64,000 nt of DNA from Mycetocola sp. (GCF_046716805.1 NZ_JBKJWH010000085.1:5901-69900); one strand, 5' to 3'; shown: positions 4,165 through 16,840, counted from the stretch's first letter. The notes: a model not told the origin generated them from the sequence alone. Numbers and translations are program-made.

Positions 4165-4277
4165 CCAGCAGTCTTCGGATCACGAACCGCGCCATGGAAG
4201 GGATGGACCGCGAACCATGCGAAAACGACCCTTCGACTTCCGCGGTGACGCTGGGAAGTCAAAGGGCCATCGTGTTG

Positions 4278-5075: not shown

Positions 5076-5300
5076 GGCTCATCCGTCGCAGATGCCGACT
5101 TCCCGCTCGCAAAACCGGCATCCGGGACGGACGAACGCACCGTCCTGAGATCCGCGCCGGTTCATCCGTCGCAAACGTCGACTTTCGGACACCGAAGCCG
5201 ACATCCGCGACAGACGAACGCGCCGTCATCGCGCCCGACCCGGCTCATCCGTCGCAGATGCCGACTTCCCGCTCGCAAAACCGGCATCTGGGACGGACGA
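5076..5300. repeat. 83-bp tandem repeat, three units (5076, 5159, 5242), each carrying hairpin-forming arms
   Basis: Units 1 and 3 match at 59 of their first 60 nt (GGCTCATCCGTCGCAGATGCCGACTTCCCGCTCGCAAAACCGGCATC[C/T]GGGACGGACGAA). Unit 2 is a diverged copy. The internal inverted repeats are TCCGTC..GATGCCG / CGGCATC..GACGGA. Confidence 0.85.
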
Positions 5301-5311
5301 AGCGGATGCCG

Positions 5312-5734
5312 TCAGCCGGCGGGCAGGTCCTTGATCAGGTTGGTGATCCGGATGGTGGAGCACCTGCGGCCCTGTTCGTCGGTCACCGCGATCTCGTGCA
5401 CGGTCATCGACCGACCCAGGTGGATCGGCGTGCAGACCCCGGTGACGATCCCCGAGGTGGCTGACCGGGTGTGAGTCGCGTTGATGTCGATGCCGACCGC
5501 CAGCTTTCCGGCGCCGGCCCACAGGTTCGCCGACATCGAACCGAGTGACTCACCGAGCACAACGTACGCGCCGCCGTGGAGCAGCATTGCCGGCTGGGTG
5601 TTGCCCTCCACCGGCATCGTCGCTACGGCTCGGTCGACGGAGAATTCGAGGAACTCGATGCCCATCTTTGCCGCAAGCGCACCCCCGCCACGTCGCAGCA
5701 CGTAGTCGAGATCGTTCGGTGTGGTATTGGTCAT
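5312..5734 (-). CDS. hotdog-fold (PaaI-type) thioesterase
   Basis: ORF 5312-5836, with the start moved to the ATG at 5734, which is preceded by GGAGCAAAGG. The sequence MGIEFLEFSVDRAVATMPVEGNTQPAMLLHGGAYVVLGESLGS is typical of PaaI/YdiI thioesterases. Confidence 0.85.
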   Translation of the reverse strand: MTNTTPNDLDYVLRRGGGALAAKMGIEFLEFSVDRAVATMPVEGNTQPAMLLHGGAYVVLGESLGSMSANLWAGAGKLAVGIDINATHTRSATSGIVTGVCTPIHLGRSMTVHEIAVTDEQGRRCSTIRITNLIKDLPAG

Positions 5735-5779
5735 CGTCGCCTTTGCTCCTGCTCGAAACCCACTGTCGCAAGTCGCTTG

Positions 5780-5785
5780 TAGGCT
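5780..5785 (+). promoter_or_regulatory. -10-like hexamer TAGGCT upstream of polA
   Basis: TAGGCT lies 6 nt before the in-frame GTG at 5792 and 3 nt before the GTG at 5789. This is compatible with a leaderless polA mRNA. Confidence 0.35.
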
Positions 5786-5788
5786 GGT

Positions 5789-8455
5789 GTGGTGTCGGAC
5801 AACGAAAAGCCTACCCTCCTCGTCATTGACGGTCATTCCCTAGCATTCCGGGCGTTCTACGCGCTCCCGGTCGACAGTTTCTCGACGAAGGACGGGCAGC
5901 ACACCAACGCCATCCATGGCTTTCTCGCGATGCTCATCAACCTCCTTCGCGACCACAAACCGACGCACATCGCGGTGGCTTTCGACATCTCACGCTCCAG
6001 TTTCCGCACCCGCGAGTACCCGGAGTACAAGGGCACTCGGGGCGAGACCCCTTCAGAGTTCATCGGCCAGGTTCCGCTCCTGCAGGACGCCCTTGCGGCG
6101 ATGAACATCACCACCATCTCGATCGAGGACTACGAGGCCGACGACATCCTCGCCACGCTCTCCGTCCAGGGTAAGGAGCAGGGCTTCCGCGTTCTCGTCG
6201 TCTCCGGCGACCGCGACACAATCCAGCTCGTCAACGACGACGTCACCCTGCTTTACCCGTCGCGCATGGGCGTCTCCGACCTCACCCTCTACGACGCCGC
6301 CAAGGTGATGGAACGGTACGGCATCCAGCCGCACCAGTACCCAGAGGTCGCCGCGCTCGTCGGCGAGACGAGCGACAACCTCCCCGGCGTCCCCAAGGTC
6401 GGCGAGAAGACCGCGGTGAAGTGGCTGAACCTGTACGGCTCGCTCGACGGCATCCTCGAGAACGCCGACAAGATCGGCGGCAAAGTCGGCGAGAGCCTCC
6501 GCGAGCACAAAGACAACGCCATCCGCAACCGCAAGCTCAACCACCTGCTCACCGACGTGACTCTGCCGGTGACCCTCGACACGCTCGTCAAGAAGCCCAT
6601 CGATCAGCAGGCGGTGCGCGACATCTTCGGCCGGCTCGAGCTGCGGACCATGCTGGACCGCCTGTTCAAGGCGGAGGGCGTCGATGAGGAGAGCGAAGCA
6701 TCCGTTTCGCCGTCCGCCGGCGGACTCGCCAGCCCGGTGCCGCAGCAGCTTCTCGACGAGGAGCTCGGCGCCTGGCTCACCCGCGCTGTCGCCGCCCACC
6801 CGAACGGTCTCGGCTTCACCGTCGACGTGCACGAAGGAAAGCCCGCAGGCATGGGCATCTCCACGCCAACGGAGTGCGTGGCCGTCGGCTGGCTTCCCGG
6901 CCGCGCCGACTACGCGCCGTTCGAGGACTGGCTGGCCAGCCCTGCACCGAAGCTGATGAACGACGCCAAGCGGCAGCTCAAGGCGCTCAAGAACGCCGGA
7001 CTTCCGTTCGACGGGCTCGCCTATGACACTCACGTCGCCGGCTGGCTGCTCCGCCCCGGCGGCCAGGACAAGACCCTCTCCGACCTCGTCAGCCGCTATC
7101 TCGACGAAACCCTCCCGGTCTCCGACCCGAACCAGCTCGTCCCGGTGAACGAACCGGCATCCGCACCCGTCGAGGCCTGGTACACGCTCCGGCTCGTCGA
7201 TGCACTCAACGAGGCGCTCGACTCCGGCTCCCGAAACGTGCTCACCTCCATCGAGGTGCCCACCCTGCTCACGATCGTCGACATCGAACTGCGCGGCGTC
7301 ACCGTCAACCACACCCAACTCACCGAATTGAGTGCCGAACTGGCCGCGAAGGCCGCCGACCTGGCATCCCGGGCATACGCGATCATCGGGCACGAAGTAA
7401 ACCTCGGCTCGCCGAAACAGCTGCAGGACGTGCTGTTCAACGAATTGGACATGCCGAAGACCCGCGCGAACAAGACCGGCTTCTCGACGGATGCCGGTGC
7501 GCTGGCCGACCTGCAAGCGTCGAACCCGCATCCTTTCCTCGGGCTCCTCCTCGAACACCGTGACGCGTCGAAGCTGCGCCAGATCGTCGAGACCGTCGAC
7601 AAAGCCATCGGGAGCGACGGCCGGGTCCACACCAGCTACGTGCAGACCGGCACCACCACGGGCCGGATCTCGTCGACCGACCCGAACCTCCAGAACATCC
7701 CCGTTCGCACCGAAGAGGGACGCCGCATCCGGGCATCGTTCGAGGCAGGTGCCGGCTACGAGACGCTGCTCACCGCAGACTACTCACAGATCGAAATGCG
7801 CATCATGGCGCACCTCTCGGGCGACGAAGGGTTGATCGAGGCATTCCGTTCAGGTGAAGACCTGCACCGGTTCGTCGGTTCCCGGATCTTCGGTGTCGAC
7901 CCGGCGGATGTGACGAACGAGATGCGAACGAAGGTCAAGGCGATGTCGTACGGCCTGGCCTACGGGCTCAGTGCGTTCGGGCTGTCGAAACAATTGCGGA
8001 TCGACTCCTCCGAGGCGAAGGCGCTCATGAGCGACTACTTCGCCCGTTTCGGCGCCGTGCGCGACTACCTCCGCAATGTCGTCGAACAGGCCGTCGAAGA
8101 CGGCTACACGACAACCCTCTTCGGCCGCCGCCGGCCGTTCCCAGACTTGAAGAGCCCCAACCGGGTGCTGCGCGACAACGCGCAACGAGCAGCCCTCAAC
8201 GCTCCCATCCAGGGCTCCGCCGCCGACATCATGAAGATCGCCATGATCAACATCGAAGCCGACACTGCGGCTCAGAATCTGGGGTCACGCATGCTCATGC
8301 AGGTGCATGATGAACTGATCTTCGAAGTGGTCGAGGGGGAGTGGGACGCCCTCGAGGCGATTGTCCGCACCCGGATGGCGGGCGCCGCGGACCTGACCGT
8401 GCCGCTCGACGTCCACGTCGGTCGGGGTCACAACTGGGACGCCGCCGCGCACTGA
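5789..8455 (+). CDS. polA: DNA polymerase I
   Basis: 888 aa. The N-terminal 5'-3' exonuclease shows LLVIDGHSLAFRAFYA. The polymerase motifs are RISSTDPNLQNIP, ADYSQIEMRIMAH and QVHDELIFE. The start may instead be the GTG at 5792. Confidence 0.97.
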   Translation: MVSDNEKPTLLVIDGHSLAFRAFYALPVDSFSTKDGQHTNAIHGFLAMLINLLRDHKPTHIAVAFDISRSSFRTREYPEYKGTRGETPSEFIGQVPLLQDALAAMNITTISIEDYEADDILATLSVQGKEQGFRVLVVSGDRDTIQLVNDDVTLLYPSRMGVSDLTLYDAAKVMERYGIQPHQYPEVAALVGETSDNLPGVPKVGEKTAVKWLNLYGSLDGILENADKIGGKVGESLREHKDNAIRNRKLNHLLTDVTLPVTLDTLVKKPIDQQAVRDIFGRLELRTMLDRLFKAEGVDEESEASVSPSAGGLASPVPQQLLDEELGAWLTRAVAAHPNGLGFTVDVHEGKPAGMGISTPTECVAVGWLPGRADYAPFEDWLASPAPKLMNDAKRQLKALKNAGLPFDGLAYDTHVAGWLLRPGGQDKTLSDLVSRYLDETLPVSDPNQLVPVNEPASAPVEAWYTLRLVDALNEALDSGSRNVLTSIEVPTLLTIVDIELRGVTVNHTQLTELSAELAAKAADLASRAYAIIGHEVNLGSPKQLQDVLFNELDMPKTRANKTGFSTDAGALADLQASNPHPFLGLLLEHRDASKLRQIVETVDKAIGSDGRVHTSYVQTGTTTGRISSTDPNLQNIPVRTEEGRRIRASFEAGAGYETLLTADYSQIEMRIMAHLSGDEGLIEAFRSGEDLHRFVGSRIFGVDPADVTNEMRTKVKAMSYGLAYGLSAFGLSKQLRIDSSEAKALMSDYFARFGAVRDYLRNVVEQAVEDGYTTTLFGRRRPFPDLKSPNRVLRDNAQRAALNAPIQGSAADIMKIAMINIEADTAAQNLGSRMLMQVHDELIFEVVEGEWDALEAIVRTRMAGAADLTVPLDVHVGRGHNWDAAAH

Positions 8456-8484
8456 ACTCCGTGACGGGCGGGCGCCACTGTCCT

Positions 8485-10173
8485 ATGCTCGACTCCATGA
8501 CTGAACCCACGCGCGCCCCGTCTGCCGTCGATGCCATCGCCGAGGACTGGGTCGACACGCTCGTCGACCTCGACCCGCTGGTCGGAACGTACATCGGACG
8601 CGCTGAGGCGAACAGCAGGTTCGGCGACTTCTCCCCAGCCGGGCATGACCGGTACGTCGCCGAGGCGAAGCGGACACTGGCCGCGCTCGAGGCGGCACAG
8701 CCCGCCGACGGCATCGATGAGGTCACCAAAACGGATCTTGCCAGCGAGCTGCGCCTCGACCTGGAGAGCGCGGAGGCCCAGCTTCACCTGCGCGACCTCA
8801 ACGTCATCGCATCGCCGGCTCAGGGCATCCGGGAGATCTTCGACATCATGCCGACAGCGACCGTCGACGACTGGGACGACATCTCCACACGGCTGAAGGC
8901 CCTCCCTGGAGCCGTCGCCGGCTACATCGAGACCCTCCGCCTCGGCATCGAACGCGGAGTCACCCCCGCCAAGCGGCAGGTGCGCGAGGTCTTCGAACAG
9001 GCCAAGAAGTACGGCGCAGACGAAGGATTCTTCCTCGGACTGGCCGCCACGGCATCTCCGGCTGAAGGCCAGCTTCCAGCCTCCCTTGCCTCCGACCTCT
9101 CAGCGAACGCCGGGCAGGCCGCCGTCGCCTACCGCTCCCTCGCCGATTTCCTCGCCCATGAGCTTGAGCCGGTCGCCCAGGAACAGGATGCCGTCGGCCG
9201 CGAACTCTACGCCCTTCAGTCACGCAGGTTCCTCGGCGCCACCATCGACCTCGACGAAACGTACGAATGGGGCATCGGCGAGCTCGCCAGCATGGTGGAC
9301 GAGCAGGAATCCATCGCCCGTGAAATCAAAGCCGGCGCGAGCGTCGAGGAAGCCATCGCGTTCCTCGACGGCGAGCCCAGCCGCAAACTGCACGGCACGG
9401 ACGCACTTCAGAAGTGGATGCAGGAAACCAGCGACCGCGCGGTCGCCGAACTCGGGAAGAGCCATTTCGACATCCCCGAAGAGATCCGGACGATCGAATG
9501 CATGATCGCTCCCACCCAGGAGGGCGGCATCTATTACACCGGCCCCACAGATGACTTCTCACGCCCGGGCCGGATGTGGTGGTCGGTGCCCGAGGGTGTC
9601 ACCGAGTTCGATACCTGGCGTGAACTCACGACCGTCTACCACGAGGGCGTCCCCGGTCACCACCTGCAGATCGGCCAGGCGGTGTACAACCGGGCGAAGC
9701 TCAACACCTGGCGGAGGCAGCTGGCCGGAACGTCAGGCCATGCGGAAGGCTGGGCGCTTTACGCCGAGAGGCTGATGGAGCAGCTCGGTTACCTCGACGA
9801 CCCCGCAGACCGGCTCGGGATGCTCGACGGTCAGCGGATGCGTGCGGCGCGCGTGGTGCTCGACATCGGTGTGCACCTCGGCAAACCGCACCCGGACGGC
9901 AGCGGGACGTGGACCGCAGACGACGCGTTCGCGTTCCTCGGCAAGAACGTGAACATGAACGAGGGCTTCGTGCGCTTCGAGGTCAACCGCTATCTCGGCT
10001 GGCCGGGCCAGGCCCCGTCGTACAAGGTCGGACAGCGGATCTGGGAACAGCTCCGCGACGAATACGCACGCCGCGAAGGTGACGCGTTCGACATCAGGGA
10101 GTTCCATAGGAAGGCGCTGGACCTCGGCGGCGTCGGTCTCGACACCCTGAAGCGCTCCCTCCTTGCCGGCTGA
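8485..10173 (+). CDS. DUF885 domain-containing protein
   Basis: ORF 8341-10173 trimmed to the first ATG after the polA stop (MLDSMTEPT...). The HEGVPGHHLQ metallopeptidase-like motif and overall length are typical of DUF885. Confidence 0.85.
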   Translation: MLDSMTEPTRAPSAVDAIAEDWVDTLVDLDPLVGTYIGRAEANSRFGDFSPAGHDRYVAEAKRTLAALEAAQPADGIDEVTKTDLASELRLDLESAEAQLHLRDLNVIASPAQGIREIFDIMPTATVDDWDDISTRLKALPGAVAGYIETLRLGIERGVTPAKRQVREVFEQAKKYGADEGFFLGLAATASPAEGQLPASLASDLSANAGQAAVAYRSLADFLAHELEPVAQEQDAVGRELYALQSRRFLGATIDLDETYEWGIGELASMVDEQESIAREIKAGASVEEAIAFLDGEPSRKLHGTDALQKWMQETSDRAVAELGKSHFDIPEEIRTIECMIAPTQEGGIYYTGPTDDFSRPGRMWWSVPEGVTEFDTWRELTTVYHEGVPGHHLQIGQAVYNRAKLNTWRRQLAGTSGHAEGWALYAERLMEQLGYLDDPADRLGMLDGQRMRAARVVLDIGVHLGKPHPDGSGTWTADDAFAFLGKNVNMNEGFVRFEVNRYLGWPGQAPSYKVGQRIWEQLRDEYARREGDAFDIREFHRKALDLGGVGLDTLKRSLLAG

Positions 10174-10228
10174 TCCCGGGGGGCGATCGTGTGGTCATCG
10201 CCGGGGTTCGGTTTTCTCGACGCTGCCG

Positions 10229-11944
10229 TCAGCGCTGCACAGCGGTTGCGGCGTCCGGCGAGCCCACGTTCCACTCCTGGTATCCCGAGCACCACGCGGA
10301 CTCGGACGACACGATGACGACGCCTGGGTACCCGTCGAGCATGGCTTCGAGCTGGCCCTGGGCCGCGGAATCAAGCCGACCGTCGATGTCGTCAAGCAGC
10401 AGCAATGCCGGGGATCCGAGCATCGCACGGGCCACCATGAGCCCCGCGACCTGTGCCGCGTCCAGCGGAATCCCGCCGCGGCGCAGCTGCGTTTTCGCAC
10501 CGTGATCCAGCGAATCGATGCACAGCCCCAGCCGCCCCGCGACTGCAAGGGCCAGGTCCCGGTTCGCGTCTGGGTGCCGGTACCGCAGCGCGCGCAGCAC
10601 GGTGCCGCGTTCGGGCACCATTGCGGAGTATGCCGCGCCGATGAGCCGGCGTCGTTTCTTCTCTCCCACGGCGCCCGGGATCACCCCGGCCACGACATAG
10701 TCCCATGCCCGGCCTGCAGCGTCCTGTCCCAGGTCACCGACGATGGGGCCCGCGTCCGTGCGCGCGGTGGCCAGTATGTTGAACAGCTCGCCGCGCCGCC
10801 GCGCATCGCCGCCGACCATGCGAATGCGGGCGCCCGGTTCGGCGTCCAACTCAGGGATGGGGTGCGAGTCGATCTCGACTCCGCACAGCCACACCCCGCC
10901 GACGGGTCGGGCCGGGCTCAGGGTCTCCGGTCGCGAAACCATCCTGATCGTTATGTCCTCTCCGGACCTCAGCGTGGTTTCCTCGTCGAGCAACGGGGCA
11001 AGAATGCGTCGGGCGGCCCGGTAGTTCTGCCGGTATTCCACGATGCGCCCCCACTCACCCACTGGCGCCGCGCACAGTCCCAGTAGGGTCAAGGCCGTGG
11101 CGATCTGTCCGGCGTCCAAAGCCACGCTCCTGGCGATGACCACCGCAATGGCGGCGGCCACCAGCGGCATGCCCAGGGAGCAGGCGCGCAACACACCGGC
11201 CAGGCGCGCCCGGTGTACTGCCGCGTCCATAACCTTATGGCCGCTGACTTCCACCCGTGCCAGCTCTCGTGCCACGCCGCCGGACGCGACCACCGCGGAC
11301 GAAGCGGCGACGGTGTCGGCGATACGCGCGGCAAGGTTGCCGCGGTGCCGCCGCAGAACCCGGGCACGTTGAAAGGCGGGTCTGGCGAGCAGGAGCAGCG
11401 CGGCGCCCAGCACCAGCACCGGAAGCCCAAGCGCCGGCGCCAGAAGGGGATTCAGCACCCAGAGGCCGACCATCGAGATGAGAACCAGAGGGATACCGGC
11501 CAGCATCGGGGCGATTCCCTGAGCCACCCAGTTGCGCACCGAGGACAGGTCGTTGCTCGCCCTGGCCACGGTGATGCCCACAGAGGGGGCCTTCCGTGCC
11601 AGCAGCGAGTGAGAGATCAGCGAAACGCGCAACTGTGCCACGTAATGCTGTCCGAGCTTCTCGGCGAACACCCGCTCCAGGTATCGACCGTAGCCGAGCA
11701 CCAGAATCAGCGCGCCGATGCCGGCGACGACGGGGAGCTTCGCGCCGCCGTTCACGAGGCTTCCGACCAGGAGGGCGATCGTCACACCAAGCGCACCGCA
11801 CAGTGTGGCAATGGCCAGCAGCGCGGCAAACAGCGCACGGCGCCTCCCGGTGATGAGCTTCGGCAGCCGCGCTGCGCGACCCCGAATACCGGTGTCCTTC
11901 GCGGAATCCACCGGTTCTGCCGCACCTTCCCGCGTGCCGCCCAT
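10229..11944 (-). CDS. ABC-exporter-like membrane protein (six TM helices) with fully degenerate nucleotide-binding domain
   Basis: ORF 10229-12016, with the start placed at the ATG at 11944, downstream of the preceding gene's stop. About six hydrophobic helices are followed by an NBD-like region in which each motif is altered:
- Walker A is VGGDARRRGE
- the signature is GGIPLDAAQ
- Walker B is LLLLDDID
- the H-loop position is VVIVSSES. Confidence 0.75.
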   Translation of the reverse strand: MGGTREGAAEPVDSAKDTGIRGRAARLPKLITGRRRALFAALLAIATLCGALGVTIALLVGSLVNGGAKLPVVAGIGALILVLGYGRYLERVFAEKLGQHYVAQLRVSLISHSLLARKAPSVGITVARASNDLSSVRNWVAQGIAPMLAGIPLVLISMVGLWVLNPLLAPALGLPVLVLGAALLLLARPAFQRARVLRRHRGNLAARIADTVAASSAVVASGGVARELARVEVSGHKVMDAAVHRARLAGVLRACSLGMPLVAAAIAVVIARSVALDAGQIATALTLLGLCAAPVGEWGRIVEYRQNYRAARRILAPLLDEETTLRSGEDITIRMVSRPETLSPARPVGGVWLCGVEIDSHPIPELDAEPGARIRMVGGDARRRGELFNILATARTDAGPIVGDLGQDAAGRAWDYVVAGVIPGAVGEKKRRRLIGAAYSAMVPERGTVLRALRYRHPDANRDLALAVAGRLGLCIDSLDHGAKTQLRRGGIPLDAAQVAGLMVARAMLGSPALLLLDDIDGRLDSAAQGQLEAMLDGYPGVVIVSSESAWCSGYQEWNVGSPDAATAVQR

Positions 11945-11961
11945 CCGTGCACCTGCAGCGC

Positions 11962-13116
11962 TCACAGCAAGGCGGCGCGCACCGGGATCAGGGCGGCGGC
12001 GACTTCGGGACGGCACAGGTCGTAGGTGACGATGACGGGGACGTCGATCCAGGCCGAGGCCTCCGCGGCGGCCAGGGGCGAAGCGGTGAGCAGGCCGGAG
12101 ACGGCTGCCACCGGCACCGCGGCGTCATGCAGCAGGTCCAGTCCGGCGCGGGCGCCCAGAGCATCCTGAGCTGCGAACACGACGGTGTCCACATAGGTGG
12201 CGAAGAGCGGGTCGCGCAGCAGTCTGGAGGTTTCGCCCTGGTAAAGCCCGTCGGCGATCTCGATGACCACCACATCGGCGCCAAAGGCAGCCTGCTCGTC
12301 GATCATCGCGGCGAGCAGGTTGCGAACCTCTTCGTAGGCGAGCTTGAAGGTGGTGGGGTATCCGAAGTCGGTGAAGTCGCAGACCGGAAACGCACCGGCG
12401 TCGATGAACAGGTTGGGGTCGTTGCCCGCGCCAGTTCCGGTCGCCTTGCCCGCTGCCACAGTGAGACCGGCGTTGGACAGCCCGTTGACCAGGCAGGCGA
12501 GCGTGGTGGACTTGCCCGAGTTCATCGATGTGCCCAGAACGGCGATGACCGGCGGGCGCCGGGAGCCCAGCGCGGCGACCGCGGCCAGTGACGGGCTGCC
12601 GACCTGCAGGGGAGAGAAGTCGCGCAGGTTCACTACGCCCTCCCTGGTTGCCAGGAGGCCGATCGGTTCGATCGCGGTGGCGGCTCCGATCGAAGCGTGT
12701 GTCTCGATCACGTATCCGGCGAGCCCGCCGCCTGCGACGAGGTGGCAGGGCTCGAGGGAATCCGGCACGTGTGCCAGAAACTGGTCAGGGGCGTAGCGGT
12801 TGCCGTATGCGACCATGATCTCCTGGCCGACGAACAAGAGCTGGCGGCGGGAGGTCGGAGATTCCAGCCGCGTGTGCTTGCCCAGTTCTGTGACGCGCGC
12901 AATGACGACATCTCCGGCTTCGGGGTGAACCTCGGACCCGGCCAGCATGTGGAAGTCCTCAGGTCGCTTGGTGAATTCGGTGGCGACAAAACGCGTGGTG
13001 TAGGCGGCCCGGACCTTCACCGCCCGCTCCGCCCCAATCTGTACGCGGGTGTATCGGCCGTCAGTAACCTCACGTGCATCGAGGTCATCGGTGTCGAGGC
13101 TGGGGCTGATGCTCAT
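11962..13116 (-). CDS. P-loop NTPase of unknown function (BioD/CobQ/DUF1611-like GT-x4-GKS motif) with N-terminal beta-rich domain
   Basis: ORF 11962-13209 trimmed to the ATG at 13116, which is preceded by GAAGGA. Walker A is VLGTSMNSGKSTT and the Walker-B-like segment is ADVVVIEIADGL. The stop lies 17 nt upstream of the next gene's start. Confidence 0.7.
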   Translation of the reverse strand: MSISPSLDTDDLDAREVTDGRYTRVQIGAERAVKVRAAYTTRFVATEFTKRPEDFHMLAGSEVHPEAGDVVIARVTELGKHTRLESPTSRRQLLFVGQEIMVAYGNRYAPDQFLAHVPDSLEPCHLVAGGGLAGYVIETHASIGAATAIEPIGLLATREGVVNLRDFSPLQVGSPSLAAVAALGSRRPPVIAVLGTSMNSGKSTTLACLVNGLSNAGLTVAAGKATGTGAGNDPNLFIDAGAFPVCDFTDFGYPTTFKLAYEEVRNLLAAMIDEQAAFGADVVVIEIADGLYQGETSRLLRDPLFATYVDTVVFAAQDALGARAGLDLLHDAAVPVAAVSGLLTASPLAAAEASAWIDVPVIVTYDLCRPEVAAALIPVRAALL

Positions 13117-13256
13117 ATCGGTAATCCTTCTCAGTGCCAGGAACTCCATGCCGCCCCGCTTCGGCCGCAAGCACAATGCCTTGCATTGCTCCCCAGCCTG
13201 CATCGCCAAAGTAAGCGGCAGGTGAACAAACCACGGATGTACTGTTTCGGGATTAC

Positions 13257-13391
13257 GACTGGGAGCAGCTCCGGGACGAGTACTCGCGCCGCCAGGGCGA
13301 CGCCTTCGACATCAAGGAGTTCCACAAGAAGTCGCTGGACCTCGGCGGCGTCGGTGTCGACACCCTGAAGCGCACCCTGCTGGCCGGCTGA
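13257..13391 (+). pseudogene. orphan 3'-terminal fragment (44 codons plus stop) of a second DUF885 gene copy
   Basis: It translates to DWEQLRDEYSRRQGDAFDIKEFHKKSLDLGGVGVDTLKRTLLAG*. The intact gene end at 10039-10173 reads IWEQLRDEYARREGDAFDIREFHRKALDLGGVGLDTLKRSLLAG*. I saw no homology upstream of 13257. Confidence 0.75.
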
Positions 13392-13479
13392 ACGGCCTCC
13401 CGCCCGGTCGCCTCGTCGACGTCCCCACCGCTGGCATGGTGCCAACGGGGTGCTTCATCAACCTGAGACGGTCCAGGAG

Positions 13480-13961
13480 TCAGAAACGCCGGGAGGTGGT
13501 GGAGATGGGACCTGTCTTATCGGCAAACTTGTGGAGCTTGCCATCCTCGGCCGCGCGGAGGCGCGGATGGAACTCGACAATTTCAGGGCACTCGTCGAGC
13601 AGGAAGCGCCGAAATGATGTCCAGGTCAGTACTCCTACGTCGGTGTGGCCACCACGTTCCAGACGCCGAACACCGAGAGCGCGAGGTAGAAGACGAAAGG
13701 CGGAATGTCGTGGGCGATCACGAACAGGGCGGTGAAGGCCGCGGTCGCACTGAGCAGCAAGACTCCGATCCACGTCTCATGCTAAAGGCTGGCCATACCG
13801 AGTAGTGCCAGGCCCGGAAGTGTGAGCCAGACGTACCCCAACCACGGCCCCGCCGGAAGTTCGCCTCGGGCGAATTCCTCGATCCGCCGACCACGACGCG
13901 CACAGGCGACAGCCCATAGCGCCGCTCCCACGAACAACGCGGTTCCGGCGGCAGCTGCCAT
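13480..13961 (-). pseudogene. disrupted small membrane protein gene (in-frame TAG, probable frameshift)
   Basis: From the ATG at 13961 the frame reads MAAAAGTALFVGAALWAVACARRGRRIEEFARGELPAGPWLGYVWLTLPGLALLGMASL, then TAG (13782-13784). It continues in frame as HETWIGVLLLSATAAFTALFVIAHDIPPFVFYLALSVFGVWNVVATPT to a stop at 13635-13637. A further start-less reading frame (..TSFRRFLLDECPEIVEFHPRLRAAEDGKLHKFADKTGPI..) runs on to 13480 in another frame. Confidence 0.4.
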
Positions 13962-14298
13962 TCATCGGTCATGTACCACTCAACTCAGTGACCTGATCTT
14001 TGATGGCGACGCTACGCTGCGGCGTGCCATGACTCAACACCCAGCGTGCACGGTCAGCGCCATCCGCTCCTTCACCGGTGCTCCATTCCGGGGGGTTCGA
14101 CGATGCCGGCGGGTGTCGACGGTGCAGACTGTGCCGACGGGCGCACGTCACGATCGCCGCACCCGTCATCGGTAGGCTCTACAGGTACGGCGGAGCATTC
14201 ACCTACTCCGTCGGCAGCGAGGCGGATGTCGTGAGCTAACACGTTGCCATCGCAGGCATCCGACCGCCCCCGTCCGCCCCTGAACCGGAGACCGCTGA

Positions 14299-15219
14299 AT
14301 GACTCAGATCGCCCTCGTCAGCCATGGCCTGACCGATCCCGCTCTTCGTGATGACGACCTTCCGCTCCTCGTCGACGGTCTCACGCAGGCGGGCCTGCCG
14401 GCGCAGGTGGCGCTCTGGACCGACCCGTCGGTGCGCTGGGAGGACTTCGGCCTCGTGGTTCTCCGTTCGCCGTGGGACTACCCCGACGCCGCTCCGGAGT
14501 TCCTTGCCTGGCTCGACCGCGTGGCATCCGTTGTTCGCGTGCTGAACGCGCCGGCACTGGTCCGCTGGAACATCGACAAGACGTACCTCCGCGAAATCGC
14601 CGCCGCCTCCACCGTTCCGCTGGTGCCGACGACGTTCTGCACCACGCTCGGCGAAGTGGTGACAGCGCTGGCAGTCCTTCGGCCGGGTCGCGTTGTGATC
14701 AAGCCGTCGGTGTCCGCGGGTTCGCAGAACACCGGGTTGTTCGAAGCCGGCGATCCCTCCGTGCTCCTCCTCGCACGGCAGATCCTCGCCCTCGGCAAGG
14801 TTGTGATGGTTCAGCCGGCGATCGACGGGGTGCAGGAGCGCGGGGAGCGTGCCCTCCTCTACTTCAACGGCCGGTTCAGCCACGCGATCTCCAAGGGCCC
14901 GCTGCTGGCCGTGGGCGGGGGACTGCTCGGCGGAACGTACGTCGAGACGATCCACTCGATCAACGCCGAGCCGGCCGAACGTGCCGTCGGTGACGCCCTC
15001 ATCGCTGCGGCCGTCACGGTCCTCCTCGGGCGCGGGTTGTCCGAATCCGATGCCGTTCCTCTTTATGCCCGGATCGATATCGTCGACGACCCCGTCCTCG
15101 GGCCGCTCGTGCTCGAAGCCGAGCTCTTCGAACCGTCGTTGTTTCTCGGCTCCGCGCCGGATGCCGTCGGCAATTTCGTCGCGGCCGTGCGGGAGCGACT
15201 CGCTCCCGAGCCGGTTTGA
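14299..15219 (+). CDS. ATP-grasp domain-containing protein (RimK/glutathione-synthase-like ligase)
   Basis: 306 aa. It has a pre-ATP-grasp N-terminal part and the segments VVIKPSVSAGSQNT and ARIDIVDD...LEAELFEPSLF, characteristic of ATP-grasp folds. The antisense 350-aa ORF is Arg/Gly-rich. Confidence 0.8.
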   Translation: MTQIALVSHGLTDPALRDDDLPLLVDGLTQAGLPAQVALWTDPSVRWEDFGLVVLRSPWDYPDAAPEFLAWLDRVASVVRVLNAPALVRWNIDKTYLREIAAASTVPLVPTTFCTTLGEVVTALAVLRPGRVVIKPSVSAGSQNTGLFEAGDPSVLLLARQILALGKVVMVQPAIDGVQERGERALLYFNGRFSHAISKGPLLAVGGGLLGGTYVETIHSINAEPAERAVGDALIAAAVTVLLGRGLSESDAVPLYARIDIVDDPVLGPLVLEAELFEPSLFLGSAPDAVGNFVAAVRERLAPEPV

Positions 15220-15248
15220 GGCGTCCGTTTGTCGGCCAAGATACTCAT

Positions 15249-15278
15249 TTGCGGCTCGCCCGAGATTCCCGATAGACT
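15249..15278 (+). promoter_or_regulatory. putative rpsA promoter
   Basis: TTGCGG, an 18-nt spacer and TAGACT lie about 115 nt upstream of the rpsA start. This is a motif match only. Confidence 0.35.
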
Positions 15279-15394
15279 GACATGTCACTTTTGTGACGTT
15301 CTATCCGTTCGCCGTGCACGGAAAACACCCTGACAATTCACGATTGGCAGGATCGTGTCGGCCCGAAATCAGTCCTCACTGGAGCAACCACTAC

Positions 15395-16840
15395 ATGACA
15401 ACCGCAACGACCGCCAAGCAGGTCGCTATCAACGACATCGGATCGGCTGAAGACTTCCTGGCCGCGGTCGAGAAAACACTGAAGTTCTTCAACGACGGAG
15501 ACCTCATCGAAGGTACCGTCGTCAAGATCGATCGCGACGAGGTCCTCCTCGATGTCGGCTACAAGACCGAGGGTGTTATTCCCTCGCGCGAACTTTCGAT
15601 CAAGCACGACGTGGACCCCAGCGAGGTCGTCCAGGTCGGCGACATGGTCGAAGCCCTCGTCCTCCAGAAGGAAGACAAAGAAGGTCGTCTCATCCTGTCC
15701 AAGAAGCGCGCACAGTACGAGCGCGCGTGGGGCGACGTTGAGAAGATCAAGGAAACCGATGGCGTCGTGACCGGTTCGGTCATCGAGGTCGTCAAGGGCG
15801 GCCTCATCGTCGACATCGGCCTCCGTGGCTTCCTGCCCGCATCGCTCATCGAGCTGCGCCGGGTTCGCGACCTCACGCCGTACCTCGGCCAGGAGATCGA
15901 AGCCAAGATCCTCGAACTTGACAAGAACCGCAACAACGTTGTGCTTTCGCGTCGCGCGCTGCTCGAGCAGACCCAGTCTGAGAGCCGCACCACGTTCCTG
16001 AACAACCTCCAGAAGGGGCAGGTCCGCAAGGGCGTCGTCTCGTCGATCGTCAACTTCGGTGCGTTCGTCGACCTCGGTGGCGTCGATGGTCTCGTCCACG
16101 TCTCAGAGCTCAGCTGGAAGCACATTGAGCACGCTTCTGAGGTCGTCGAGGTTGGCCAGGAGGTCACCGTCGAGATCCTCGAAGTGGACCTCGACCGTGA
16201 GCGTGTCTCCCTGTCGCTCAAGGCGACGCAGGAAGACCCGTGGCAGGTTTTCGCCCGCACCCACGCCATCGGCCAGGTTGCACCGGGCAAGGTCACCAAG
16301 CTCGTTCCGTTCGGTGCGTTCGTTCGCGTCGCAGACGGCATCGAGGGGCTCGTTCACATCTCCGAGCTCAGCGGCAAGCACGTCGAACTCGCCGAGCAGG
16401 TTGTCTCGGTCAGTGACGAGGTCTTCGTCAAGGTCATCGACATCGACCTCGAACGCCGCCGCATCTCGCTGAGCCTCAAGCAGGCCAACGAAGGCGTCGA
16501 CCCCGAGGGCACCGAGTTCGACCCGGCACTCTACGGAATGCTCACCGAGTACGACGACCAGGGCAACTACAAGTACCCTGAAGGCTTCGACCCGGAGACC
16601 AACGAGTGGAAAGAGGGCTTCGACACCCAGCGCGAGAAGTGGGAGCAGGACTACGCTGCAGCCCAGGCTCGCTGGGAAGCTCACAAGAAGCAGGTTGCGA
16701 CCGCCGCGACGGAAGAGGCCGCAGCAGCGTCCGCCCCTGCCGCGGGTTCGACCTTCTCGAGCGAGACCGCAGGCAGCGGCACCCTCGCAGACGACGAGTC
16801 GCTTGCGGCTCTTCGCGAGAAGCTGACCAGCAACTCTTAA
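15395..16840 (+). CDS. rpsA: 30S ribosomal protein S1
   Basis: Four S1 repeats are present (e.g. GTVVKIDRDEVLLDVGYKTEGVIP and GVVSSIVNFGAFVDLGGVDGLVHVSE). The start was moved to the ATG at 15395, which follows GGAG. Confidence 0.95.
   Translation: MTTATTAKQVAINDIGSAEDFLAAVEKTLKFFNDGDLIEGTVVKIDRDEVLLDVGYKTEGVIPSRELSIKHDVDPSEVVQVGDMVEALVLQKEDKEGRLILSKKRAQYERAWGDVEKIKETDGVVTGSVIEVVKGGLIVDIGLRGFLPASLIELRRVRDLTPYLGQEIEAKILELDKNRNNVVLSRRALLEQTQSESRTTFLNNLQKGQVRKGVVSSIVNFGAFVDLGGVDGLVHVSELSWKHIEHASEVVEVGQEVTVEILEVDLDRERVSLSLKATQEDPWQVFARTHAIGQVAPGKVTKLVPFGAFVRVADGIEGLVHISELSGKHVELAEQVVSVSDEVFVKVIDIDLERRRISLSLKQANEGVDPEGTEFDPALYGMLTEYDDQGNYKYPEGFDPETNEWKEGFDTQREKWEQDYAAAQARWEAHKKQVATAATEEAAAASAPAAGSTFSSETAGSGTLADDESLAALREKLTSNS

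Follow-up and report, generated by a model that had tools for sequence, protein, structure and literature searches.

Prophages and genomic islands that integrate into the 3' end of a gene carry a replacement end on the element and come to lie between attL and attR sites. Core-gene-flanked integration hotspots are reportedly kept by homologous recombination, a view associated with Oliveira and colleagues (2017). The locus considered here lies in a stretch of 64,000 nucleotides (nt) of DNA from Mycetocola sp. of the Microbacteriaceae (GCF_046716805.1 NZ_JBKJWH010000085.1:5901-69900), termed the window, whose positions are used throughout. In it, the 3' end of a gene of the DUF885 family occurs twice, once in the intact gene (copy I) and once as an orphan (copy O), and a two-gene operon (the cargo) lies between the copies. 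Our preferred reading, to which a probability of about 0.55 may be given, is that the locus is a three-source mosaic formed by homology-facilitated illegitimate recombination (HFIR, "3'-end displacement"), in which O would be the displaced resident end and I the imported one.

HFIR is known from several studies (de Vries and Wackernagel, 2002; Prudhomme et al., 2002; Meier and Wackernagel, 2003; as listed in PMC5361080) and from a case of Escherichia coli conjugation (PMC3240628), and the topology of the Mycetocola locus matches the HFIR and orphaned-3'-end models found in these two sources. As in HFIR, a homologous anchor is present on one side, the far end is non-homologous, no recombinase gene is involved, the recipient sequence beside the illegitimate joint is kept and the foreign segment measures a few kb. 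HFIR was, however, defined experimentally in transformable species, whereas here a footprint alone is seen in a genus without a known uptake route, and the fragment carrying the anchor must already have been mosaic, combining Mycetocola DNA with a cargo of Micrococcaceae type. A similar layout is produced by C-terminal displacement at rhs loci and by displacement of effector-immunity modules of the type VI secretion system (Jackson et al., 2009; Kirchberger et al., 2017, PMC5361080), where a module that arrives with a conserved 5' anchor provides a new 3' end, the old end is orphaned downstream and an HFIR-like mechanism has likewise been proposed (PMC5361080). Those loci have highly variable toxin 3' ends with immunity genes in selected arrays that arise by a recurrent process. 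The present one, alike in topology, does not belong to such an array: the two ends are 87% alike and come from an ordinary conserved gene present in a single copy, a single event is seen, and the orphan has no partner and is decaying. With core-gene hotspots the locus shares a hypervariable spacer of patchy content and without mobile-element genes, between DUF885/polA on one side and rpsA on the other; a double-crossover replacement, though, leaves no duplicated gene end, in contrast to the one-sided scar observed here.

A duplicated 3' end of DUF885

The intact DUF885 gene (8485-10173, + strand) encodes 562 amino acids with a full-length match to PF05960 (E-value 1e-161), its start at 8485 (MLDSMTEP) having been chosen from homologues. 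Its last 43 codons and stop constitute copy I (10041-10173, +), to which copy O (13259-13391, +) aligns without gaps at 87.2% identity, with 17 differences in 133 nt. The pair was the largest direct repeat recovered by a repeat search within 7000-16000 (133 nt, 87%, spacing 3218), and BLAST of O against the whole window returned I with an E-value of 4e-42 and no third copy of the DUF885 end. The recurrence of the gene end as an orphan, which the original prediction had put forward, was thereby confirmed, although the homology comprises 43 codons plus the stop rather than 44 codons. The earlier count of eight differing amino acids took in a first codon (I/D) that lies outside the homology; 15 of the 43 shared codons differ, eight synonymously and seven non-synonymously, so that the codon changes are mostly synonymous, as had been claimed, only just. 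By codon position, the nucleotide differences fall 5/2/10 at positions 1/2/3.

For comparison, 80 relatives from GTDB, 14 metagenome loci and protein-database contexts were used, and 88 related loci were aligned. They include L085, a metagenome contig of the Joint Genome Institute (JGI), L001 (M. miduiensis), L086 (M. manganoxydans) and the Mycetocola-like contigs L106-L108. The left edge of O is sharp, as the alignments of all 88 relatives begin at 13259 and no continuation of DUF885 was found upstream of this position in any reading frame; on the right, homology stops with the stop codon and at most about 7 nt more. This boundary, with nothing DUF885-like before it, bears out the proposal that the orphan is a displaced gene end and not a decayed full paralogue. 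O is untranslatable: an in-frame stop lies directly upstream, a start codon is lacking, and no open reading frame (ORF) on the + strand ends at 13391, so that O belongs to none.

Judged against 85 homologues, O is plainly decaying, and it is still gathering changes at strain level. Its substitutions include A26S and L34V, at two positions that are invariant among these homologues, and R24K, at a position where 79 have Arg, six have Ser and none has Lys. The point at which DNA upstream of the cargo genes meets O (junction J2, 13258/13259) is marked by the sharp DUF885 start on one side and by homology to Paeniglutamicibacter up to about 13240 on the other. A second assembly of the same species, the Logan assembly L081, covers J2 together with 104 nt of O and 1865 cargo bases, and reproduces the junction at 99.7% identity. 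L081 differs at two of the 104 O bases (13307 and 13356) and at three of the 1865 cargo bases (two of five differences in O, p = 0.025), and it keeps the ancestral Leu34 codon at 13356.

Different gene relics behind the two copies

The sequences that follow I and O are not the same. In L085, DUF885 is directly followed by an epimerase/DUF1731 gene (PF01370 and PF08338), here called gene E. The window is collinear with L085 at 88% over 5253-10219, and no break interrupts the collinearity (85-88%) of I and the sequence left of it with relatives. Immediately behind I, codon-by-codon alignment to L085 (11690-11740) revealed the first ~46 nt of gene E (E stub 1, 10174-10219, +). The DUF885 stop and the E start are separated by the same 5 nt as in L085, the start codon has been lost, a 2-nt deletion is present, and the homology ends at TTTCTCG. 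Alignments of both sides place the joint of this stub with the cargo (junction J1) at 10220-10228, cargo homology beginning at most 10 nt past the stop codon of the nearer cargo gene.

Behind O, a spacer relic (13392-13634) shows in its 3' part (~13567-13622) homology to the spacer of L107 between DUF885 and M192, the gene for a 192-amino-acid membrane protein; the same segment reads like the C-terminal end of a lost ORF on the + strand (...MELDNFRALVEQEAPK, then stop). It is followed by an M192 pseudogene (13635-13965, - strand; homologues P0268-P0296), whose upstream region extends to about 14043. The pseudogene is interrupted in frame by a TAG (13782-13784) and lacks ~290 nt internally, and its minus-strand pseudo-ORF (13635-13961) matches 192-amino-acid membrane proteins at up to 83%, with 77-79% identity by blastn. 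In L106-L108 the M192 gene lies directly between DUF885 and g306, a DcsG-like ATP-grasp gene. Next comes a 3' remnant of about 54 codons (14060-14239, +) of a DUF4166 gene (PF13761), here called gene X, detected by tblastn (E-value 1e-7) and by profile (E-value 1e-8). In other Microbacteriaceae X sits between DUF885 and gene E, and similar X remnants occur in L003, L019, L106, L107 and probably L001. Alignment further revealed about ten codons of the start of gene E with a TAA inside (E stub 2, 14233-14262, +), while a deletion has removed the remainder of the gene except for the last ~5 nt; right-hand homology to L085 restarts at 14279, equivalent to L085 position 12662. Thus, 13259-14298 follows the DUF885-g306 order of L106/L107, with the addition of an E stub as in L003. 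The two E stubs agree at ~17 of 27 aligned bases (~63%, hand count), as against 87% for I and O, which indicates that the stubs come from different alleles; E stub 1 is ~78% identical to L085.

Both the epimerase stub at 10174-10219 and the run of gene relics at 13392-14265 had been missed by the original prediction. As to X, it has been worn away from its 5' end independently in several lineages, the last ~30-55 codons always being left just upstream of the next gene. Three other interpretations of the region behind O were tried and rejected. The segment 13380-14310 is not a decayed epimerase gene, as tblastn with the E protein of L085 gave only noise and the region proved to be M192, X and E stub 2; an apparent similarity to g306 starting just after the O stop failed in multiple alignment; and putative inverted X fragments on the minus strand (HPRLRA, GVWNVVATP) were put down to chance, being inconsistent in order and having an E-value of ~2.

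A two-gene operon between the copies

As originally described, exactly two intact, full-length minus-strand genes lie between I and O. Cargo gene 1 (11962-13116) encodes a 384-amino-acid DUF1611-like P-loop protein, 100% identical to P0001, labelled 'Mycetocola sp.', and cargo gene 2 (10229-12016), assigned by PF00664 and by reading of the sequence, encodes a half-transporter like the exporters of the ATP-binding cassette (ABC) type. The next-best matches to the P-loop protein (82-84% amino acid identity) are in Paeniglutamicibacter-type contigs, and the ABC-like protein is 68-72% identical to the partner gene product there; at the nucleotide level the cargo is ~78% identical to these loci. 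The housekeeping genes of the contigs cluster at >=90% with Paeniglutamicibacter (Micrococcaceae), in which the pair has a conserved context (His_Phos_1/EamA, the pair, TetR, ABC-2 permease). No named member of the Microbacteriaceae was present among the best 120 homologues of the P-loop protein besides the window's own protein, and a metagenome scan with it yielded nothing above 83% and no DUF885 context. The pair was not found within 10 kb in any of the 80 related genomes, and neither the cargo nor a second DUF885 end occurs at any of the 88 related loci, in agreement with the earlier view of the block as an acquisition.

The upstream region of the cargo (13117-13258, -), a putative promoter/leader, was delimited by alignment with L082, L083, L089 and L091. 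Homology to relatives reaches 13184 by blastn and ends at about 13240, ~125-140 nt upstream of the P-loop start and within ~18 nt of O. These limits, together with that at J1, argue that the cargo is a single operon plus promoter, tightly and cleanly trimmed, and its sequence affinities indicate a foreign (Micrococcaceae) origin. No DUF885, E or X sequence was found at the Paeniglutamicibacter-type loci, and since the relatives of the cargo lie there in an ordinary chromosomal context without a DUF885 handle, the cargo is not an element that targets DUF885. Domain searches of the interval detected no integrase, excisionase or transposase, nor a relic of one, consistent with what had been reported before; terminal inverted repeats and tRNAs are likewise absent from it. 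A plasmid search returned no close copy of the cargo, with matches of <=40% identity only, and the PADLOC defence-system library gave no meaningful match.

Composition does not set the block apart. The comparison of the block with its flanks that the original prediction had proposed was not informative, as the GC content of 68% for the cargo and 65% for the window, and GC at third codon positions (GC3) of 0.80-0.82 and 0.82-0.86, do not distinguish them, and composition was rejected as a mark of foreign origin. The pair is GC-rich relative to its own genome in Paeniglutamicibacter, too.

Regarding the proteins, an AlphaFold2 model of the P-loop protein (pLDDT, the predicted local distance difference test score, of 88.6) suggests that its C-terminal domain has the fold of the SIMIBI-class NTPases (FtsY/SRP54, dethiobiotin synthetase, HypB), while the N-terminal beta-rich domain is novel, with no structural match. 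Sequence searches of PDB with the protein or its profile gave nothing significant. Its match to PF07755 (DUF1611), 18.7 bits over 36 residues, is below the gathering threshold of 25; NCBI nevertheless names it DUF1611. The ABC-like protein combines a type IV transmembrane domain with a degenerate nucleotide-binding domain that lacks the Walker A motif GK[ST]; it shows weak matches to CydC/MsbA models and PDB matches to BmrA/ABCB1. The pair is conserved in actinobacteria, the two genes overlapping or abutting in all loci seen (L082, L083, L089, L091, L093-L104).

Probable joining of two alleles with the cargo at the joint

Since I and O are followed by different layouts, of L085 type and of L106/L003 type, respectively, the locus would represent two structurally different DUF885-rpsA alleles that have been joined, with foreign cargo at the joint. 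That such a joining took place by one-sided homologous recombination without a recombinase, in either polarity, is considered quite probable. In three respects the footprint is that of HFIR: one end of the insert is continuous with recipient-homologous DNA (I and leftwards), the other end joins DNA non-homologous to the recipient (J2), and the alleles on the two sides can be told apart by layout.

For the order of events, the polarity and the recombination mechanism, we infer the following course. The resident allele may have had the order polA-DUF885-M192-X remnant-E-g306-rpsA, a layout partly seen in L106/L107, L003 and L001. A fragment would then have arrived from a related Mycetocola-type lineage in which DUF885 abuts gene E, as in L085, and in which a Paeniglutamicibacter-type operon, promoter included, had earlier been captured by E at +46. 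Pairing would presumably have occurred between the left part of this fragment and the polA/DUF885 of the resident; at the right, where homology was lacking, the fragment end would have been joined illegitimately at a point 133 nt short of the stop codon in the resident DUF885. Because a full 3' end (I) came in with the fragment, along with E stub 1 and the cargo, DUF885 would have remained intact. The last 133 nt of the resident gene (O) would have come to lie 3.2 kb farther downstream without losing the DNA that had followed them. Later decay may account for the substitutions in O, the stop and deletion in M192 and the internal deletion of E. In an equally parsimonious variant, the cargo would first have disrupted DUF885 of the resident at -133; restoration of the gene by an allele of L085 type, with creation of J1, would have followed.

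Several observations bear on the polarity. The X 3' remnants in L106, L107 and probably L001 suggest that the O-side layout is ancestral for the clade and the L085-type layout the exception. At DUF885, the identity of the window to L085 exceeds that to L001 by 3%, whereas in polA, rpsA, coaE and uvrB the window is equidistant from the two; this excess affinity over an equidistant backbone points to allele exchange with an L085-like lineage at DUF885. It is on the ancestral O-side layout, the affinity of DUF885 to L085 and the decay of O that we favor O as the displaced resident. The idea of the original prediction that an insertion had brought a replacement end is thus upheld in its topology and probably in its polarity, whereas the block is not a self-contained, discrete insert. 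The affinity to L085 is strongest in a tract at 8900-9500 within DUF885, with 92-95% identity to L085 and 85-86% to L001; the tract resembles a patch of homologous recombination held in common with the lineage of L085.

Other findings weigh against this scenario. Two derived synonymous states, 68A and 97T, are common to I and O and occur in no relative; an origin within the lineage or gene conversion would account for them as well, and they could also reflect a very closely related donor or chance. The relatives, metagenome loci and protein-database contexts yielded no donor with gene E interrupted by the cargo and no pre-insertion allele, so we infer donor and polarity; the relative that the original prediction had called for, with a DUF885 end of the 13257-13391 type and no block, was sought in vain among the 80 genomes. 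Sliding-window identity exposed no breakpoint at or near 10041. The neighbouring g306 is saturated at ~75% to all relatives and thus uninformative on polarity, and J1 is known from a single assembly that may be metagenome-derived. To our knowledge, moreover, neither natural transformation nor another route of DNA uptake has been described in Mycetocola.

Alternative explanations

The same final structure, with the same number of illegitimate joints, would result if the polarity were reversed. An L085-type resident with the cargo in E at +46 would then have received the O side as an imported fragment, with E/g306/rpsA as its right-hand anchor and an illegitimate joint to the right end of the cargo, and this L106/L003-type fragment would have to begin by chance 133 nt before the DUF885 stop. 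The flanks mark neither side as foreign, for both have the same affinities (L085 about as near as L001, and both nearer than L106), and g306 is about equally far from all three. Yet the X remnants of L001, L106 and L107 make the O-side layout ancestral, DUF885 itself shows the excess affinity to L085, and there is no selective rationale for importing a dead gene end with relics, unlike for the cargo or for restoration of DUF885; the reversed polarity is accordingly regarded as unlikely. Still less probable is a local origin of the repeat, in which the DUF885 3' end was copied at cargo insertion, through a long target or a tandem duplication, and diverged afterwards. I and O are indeed nearest or joint-nearest to each other, share the two derived states mentioned above and both end in Gly, as do only seven of the homologues scored at that position. 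Their divergence, however, is at species level, I differing by 17 nt from O and by 17 nt from L085 (~13% each), and the E stubs are merely ~63% identical. The same flanking order is not found on the same side of both copies, I being followed by gene E, and O by spacer, M192, X remnant and an E stub of its own, so that the local tandem duplication once considered for the fragment is not supported. An additional exact deletion that recreated the L085 spacing would also be needed, for a simple insertion as for either kind of duplication, and 133 nt far exceeds any transposase target duplication. A transposon with target-site duplication does not fit either, as a 133-nt repeat of 87% identity stands against exact repeats of 2-14 bp, and no inverted repeats or transposase are present.

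Direct repeats of a gene 3' end that bracket foreign DNA and leave the target gene intact are the classic footprint of a site-specific element, and I and O might accordingly be the attL and attR of an island in the DUF885 3' end that came with a replacement end and whose integrase disappeared later. The repeats do contain identical runs of 23 and 17 nt, but these fall inside the most conserved coding stretch, which is invariant across the 85 homologues. No integrase or excisionase, or relic of either, is at hand. The cargo is not element-like but a bare chromosomal operon, whose relatives occupy a conserved, non-mobile context without a copy of the target, and lacks close plasmid copies. The site is not reused at the other 88 loci, and a replacement end borne on attP would not explain E stub 1, a piece of a resident gene, between repeat and cargo. 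We consider this origin very improbable. Nearly as doubtful is a recombinase-free cassette in which the 133-nt DUF885 end and the E stub serve as a functional 'homology handle'. Were it real, a circular or linear molecule of handle and operon would spread between Mycetocola genomes as a self-complementing, homology-guided cassette, by Campbell-type single crossover or by homologous recombination on one side, and the target gene would be restored each time; the direct repeats would allow precise RecA-mediated excision. Finally, a metagenome assembler could have fused two strain variants with a Micrococcaceae contig: the genome may be metagenome-assembled, the matching protein is labelled only with the genus name and comes from a 74.9-kb contig, and J1 is present in one assembly only. 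J2, on the other hand, recurs at 99.7% in the independent Logan assembly, neither junction lies in a shared repeat able to mislead an assembler, the cargo is just 78% identical to any Micrococcaceae contig found, and the stubs, the pseudogene and the internal deletions speak of biological decay rather than of mis-joins. With junctions outside repeats and relics of biological nature, such a chimera is hardly credible.

Significance of the locus

Under the preferred HFIR reading, the locus is most likely a well-resolved natural example of a known process and not a new kind of element. From laboratory work and from toxin loci, one-sided recombination footprints are well documented; only rarely have they been resolved in environmental Actinomycetota at ordinary housekeeping loci. 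Here a source can be named for each piece, the hypervariable spacer between core genes having contributed two alleles and the Micrococcaceae an operon. The locus would thereby document gene transfer across families into a chromosome without mobile-element machinery, and would illustrate how a conserved gene may remain intact although foreign DNA has entered its 3' end. The prediction is that a pre-insertion allele with an O-type end should exist, and that the operon should be lost by RecA-mediated recombination between the repeats.

The surrounding polA-rpsA interval

The conserved anchors on the two sides are polA (5789-8455, +, domain match) and rpsA (15395-16840, +, four S1 domains), the latter having 94-96% nucleotide identity to relatives. 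The distance from the polA stop at 8455 to the likely rpsA start at 15395 is 6.9 kb, close to the extent first suggested for the gap, although it is not wholly accessory. DUF885 and g306 are conserved residents of the interval across Microbacteriaceae, and only ~4.1 kb (10220-14278) is lineage-specific; the variable pocket corresponds to the DUF885-rpsA spacer. DUF885 adjoins polA in 79 of the 80 related genomes, and the protein of the window is 95% identical to that of L085, 92% to L001, 91% to L086 and 95% to P0121.

In relatives, the DUF885-rpsA spacer contains varying mixes of E, X, M192 and g306, or almost nothing, and it is a hotspot of rearrangement and recombination across Microbacteriaceae. 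The loci compared for this spacer (window 10174-15394) were L001-L004, L006, L008, L019, L038, L047, L076, L085, L086, L088 and L106-L108. The g306 gene (14299-15219, +; NF058666 match of 227 bits, below the cut-off of 360) lies upstream of rpsA in L001-L004, L085, L086 and L106-L108 and is a conserved Mycetocola resident. It evolves much faster than the genes beside it, with 72-77% nucleotide identity between close species as compared with 94-96% for rpsA.

An Rfam scan of 9900-15400 at E-values <= 1 returned no RNA element, scans for promoters and terminators gave results at chance level, and the only tRNAs of the window are at 4277 and 38281. The longest rpsA ORF has a GTG start that precedes the one called in most relatives by 34 codons (15293-15394). 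Protein calls for rpsA are 481 amino acids long in L085, L087 and L106-L107 and 515 in L086, and the true start is probably near 15395.

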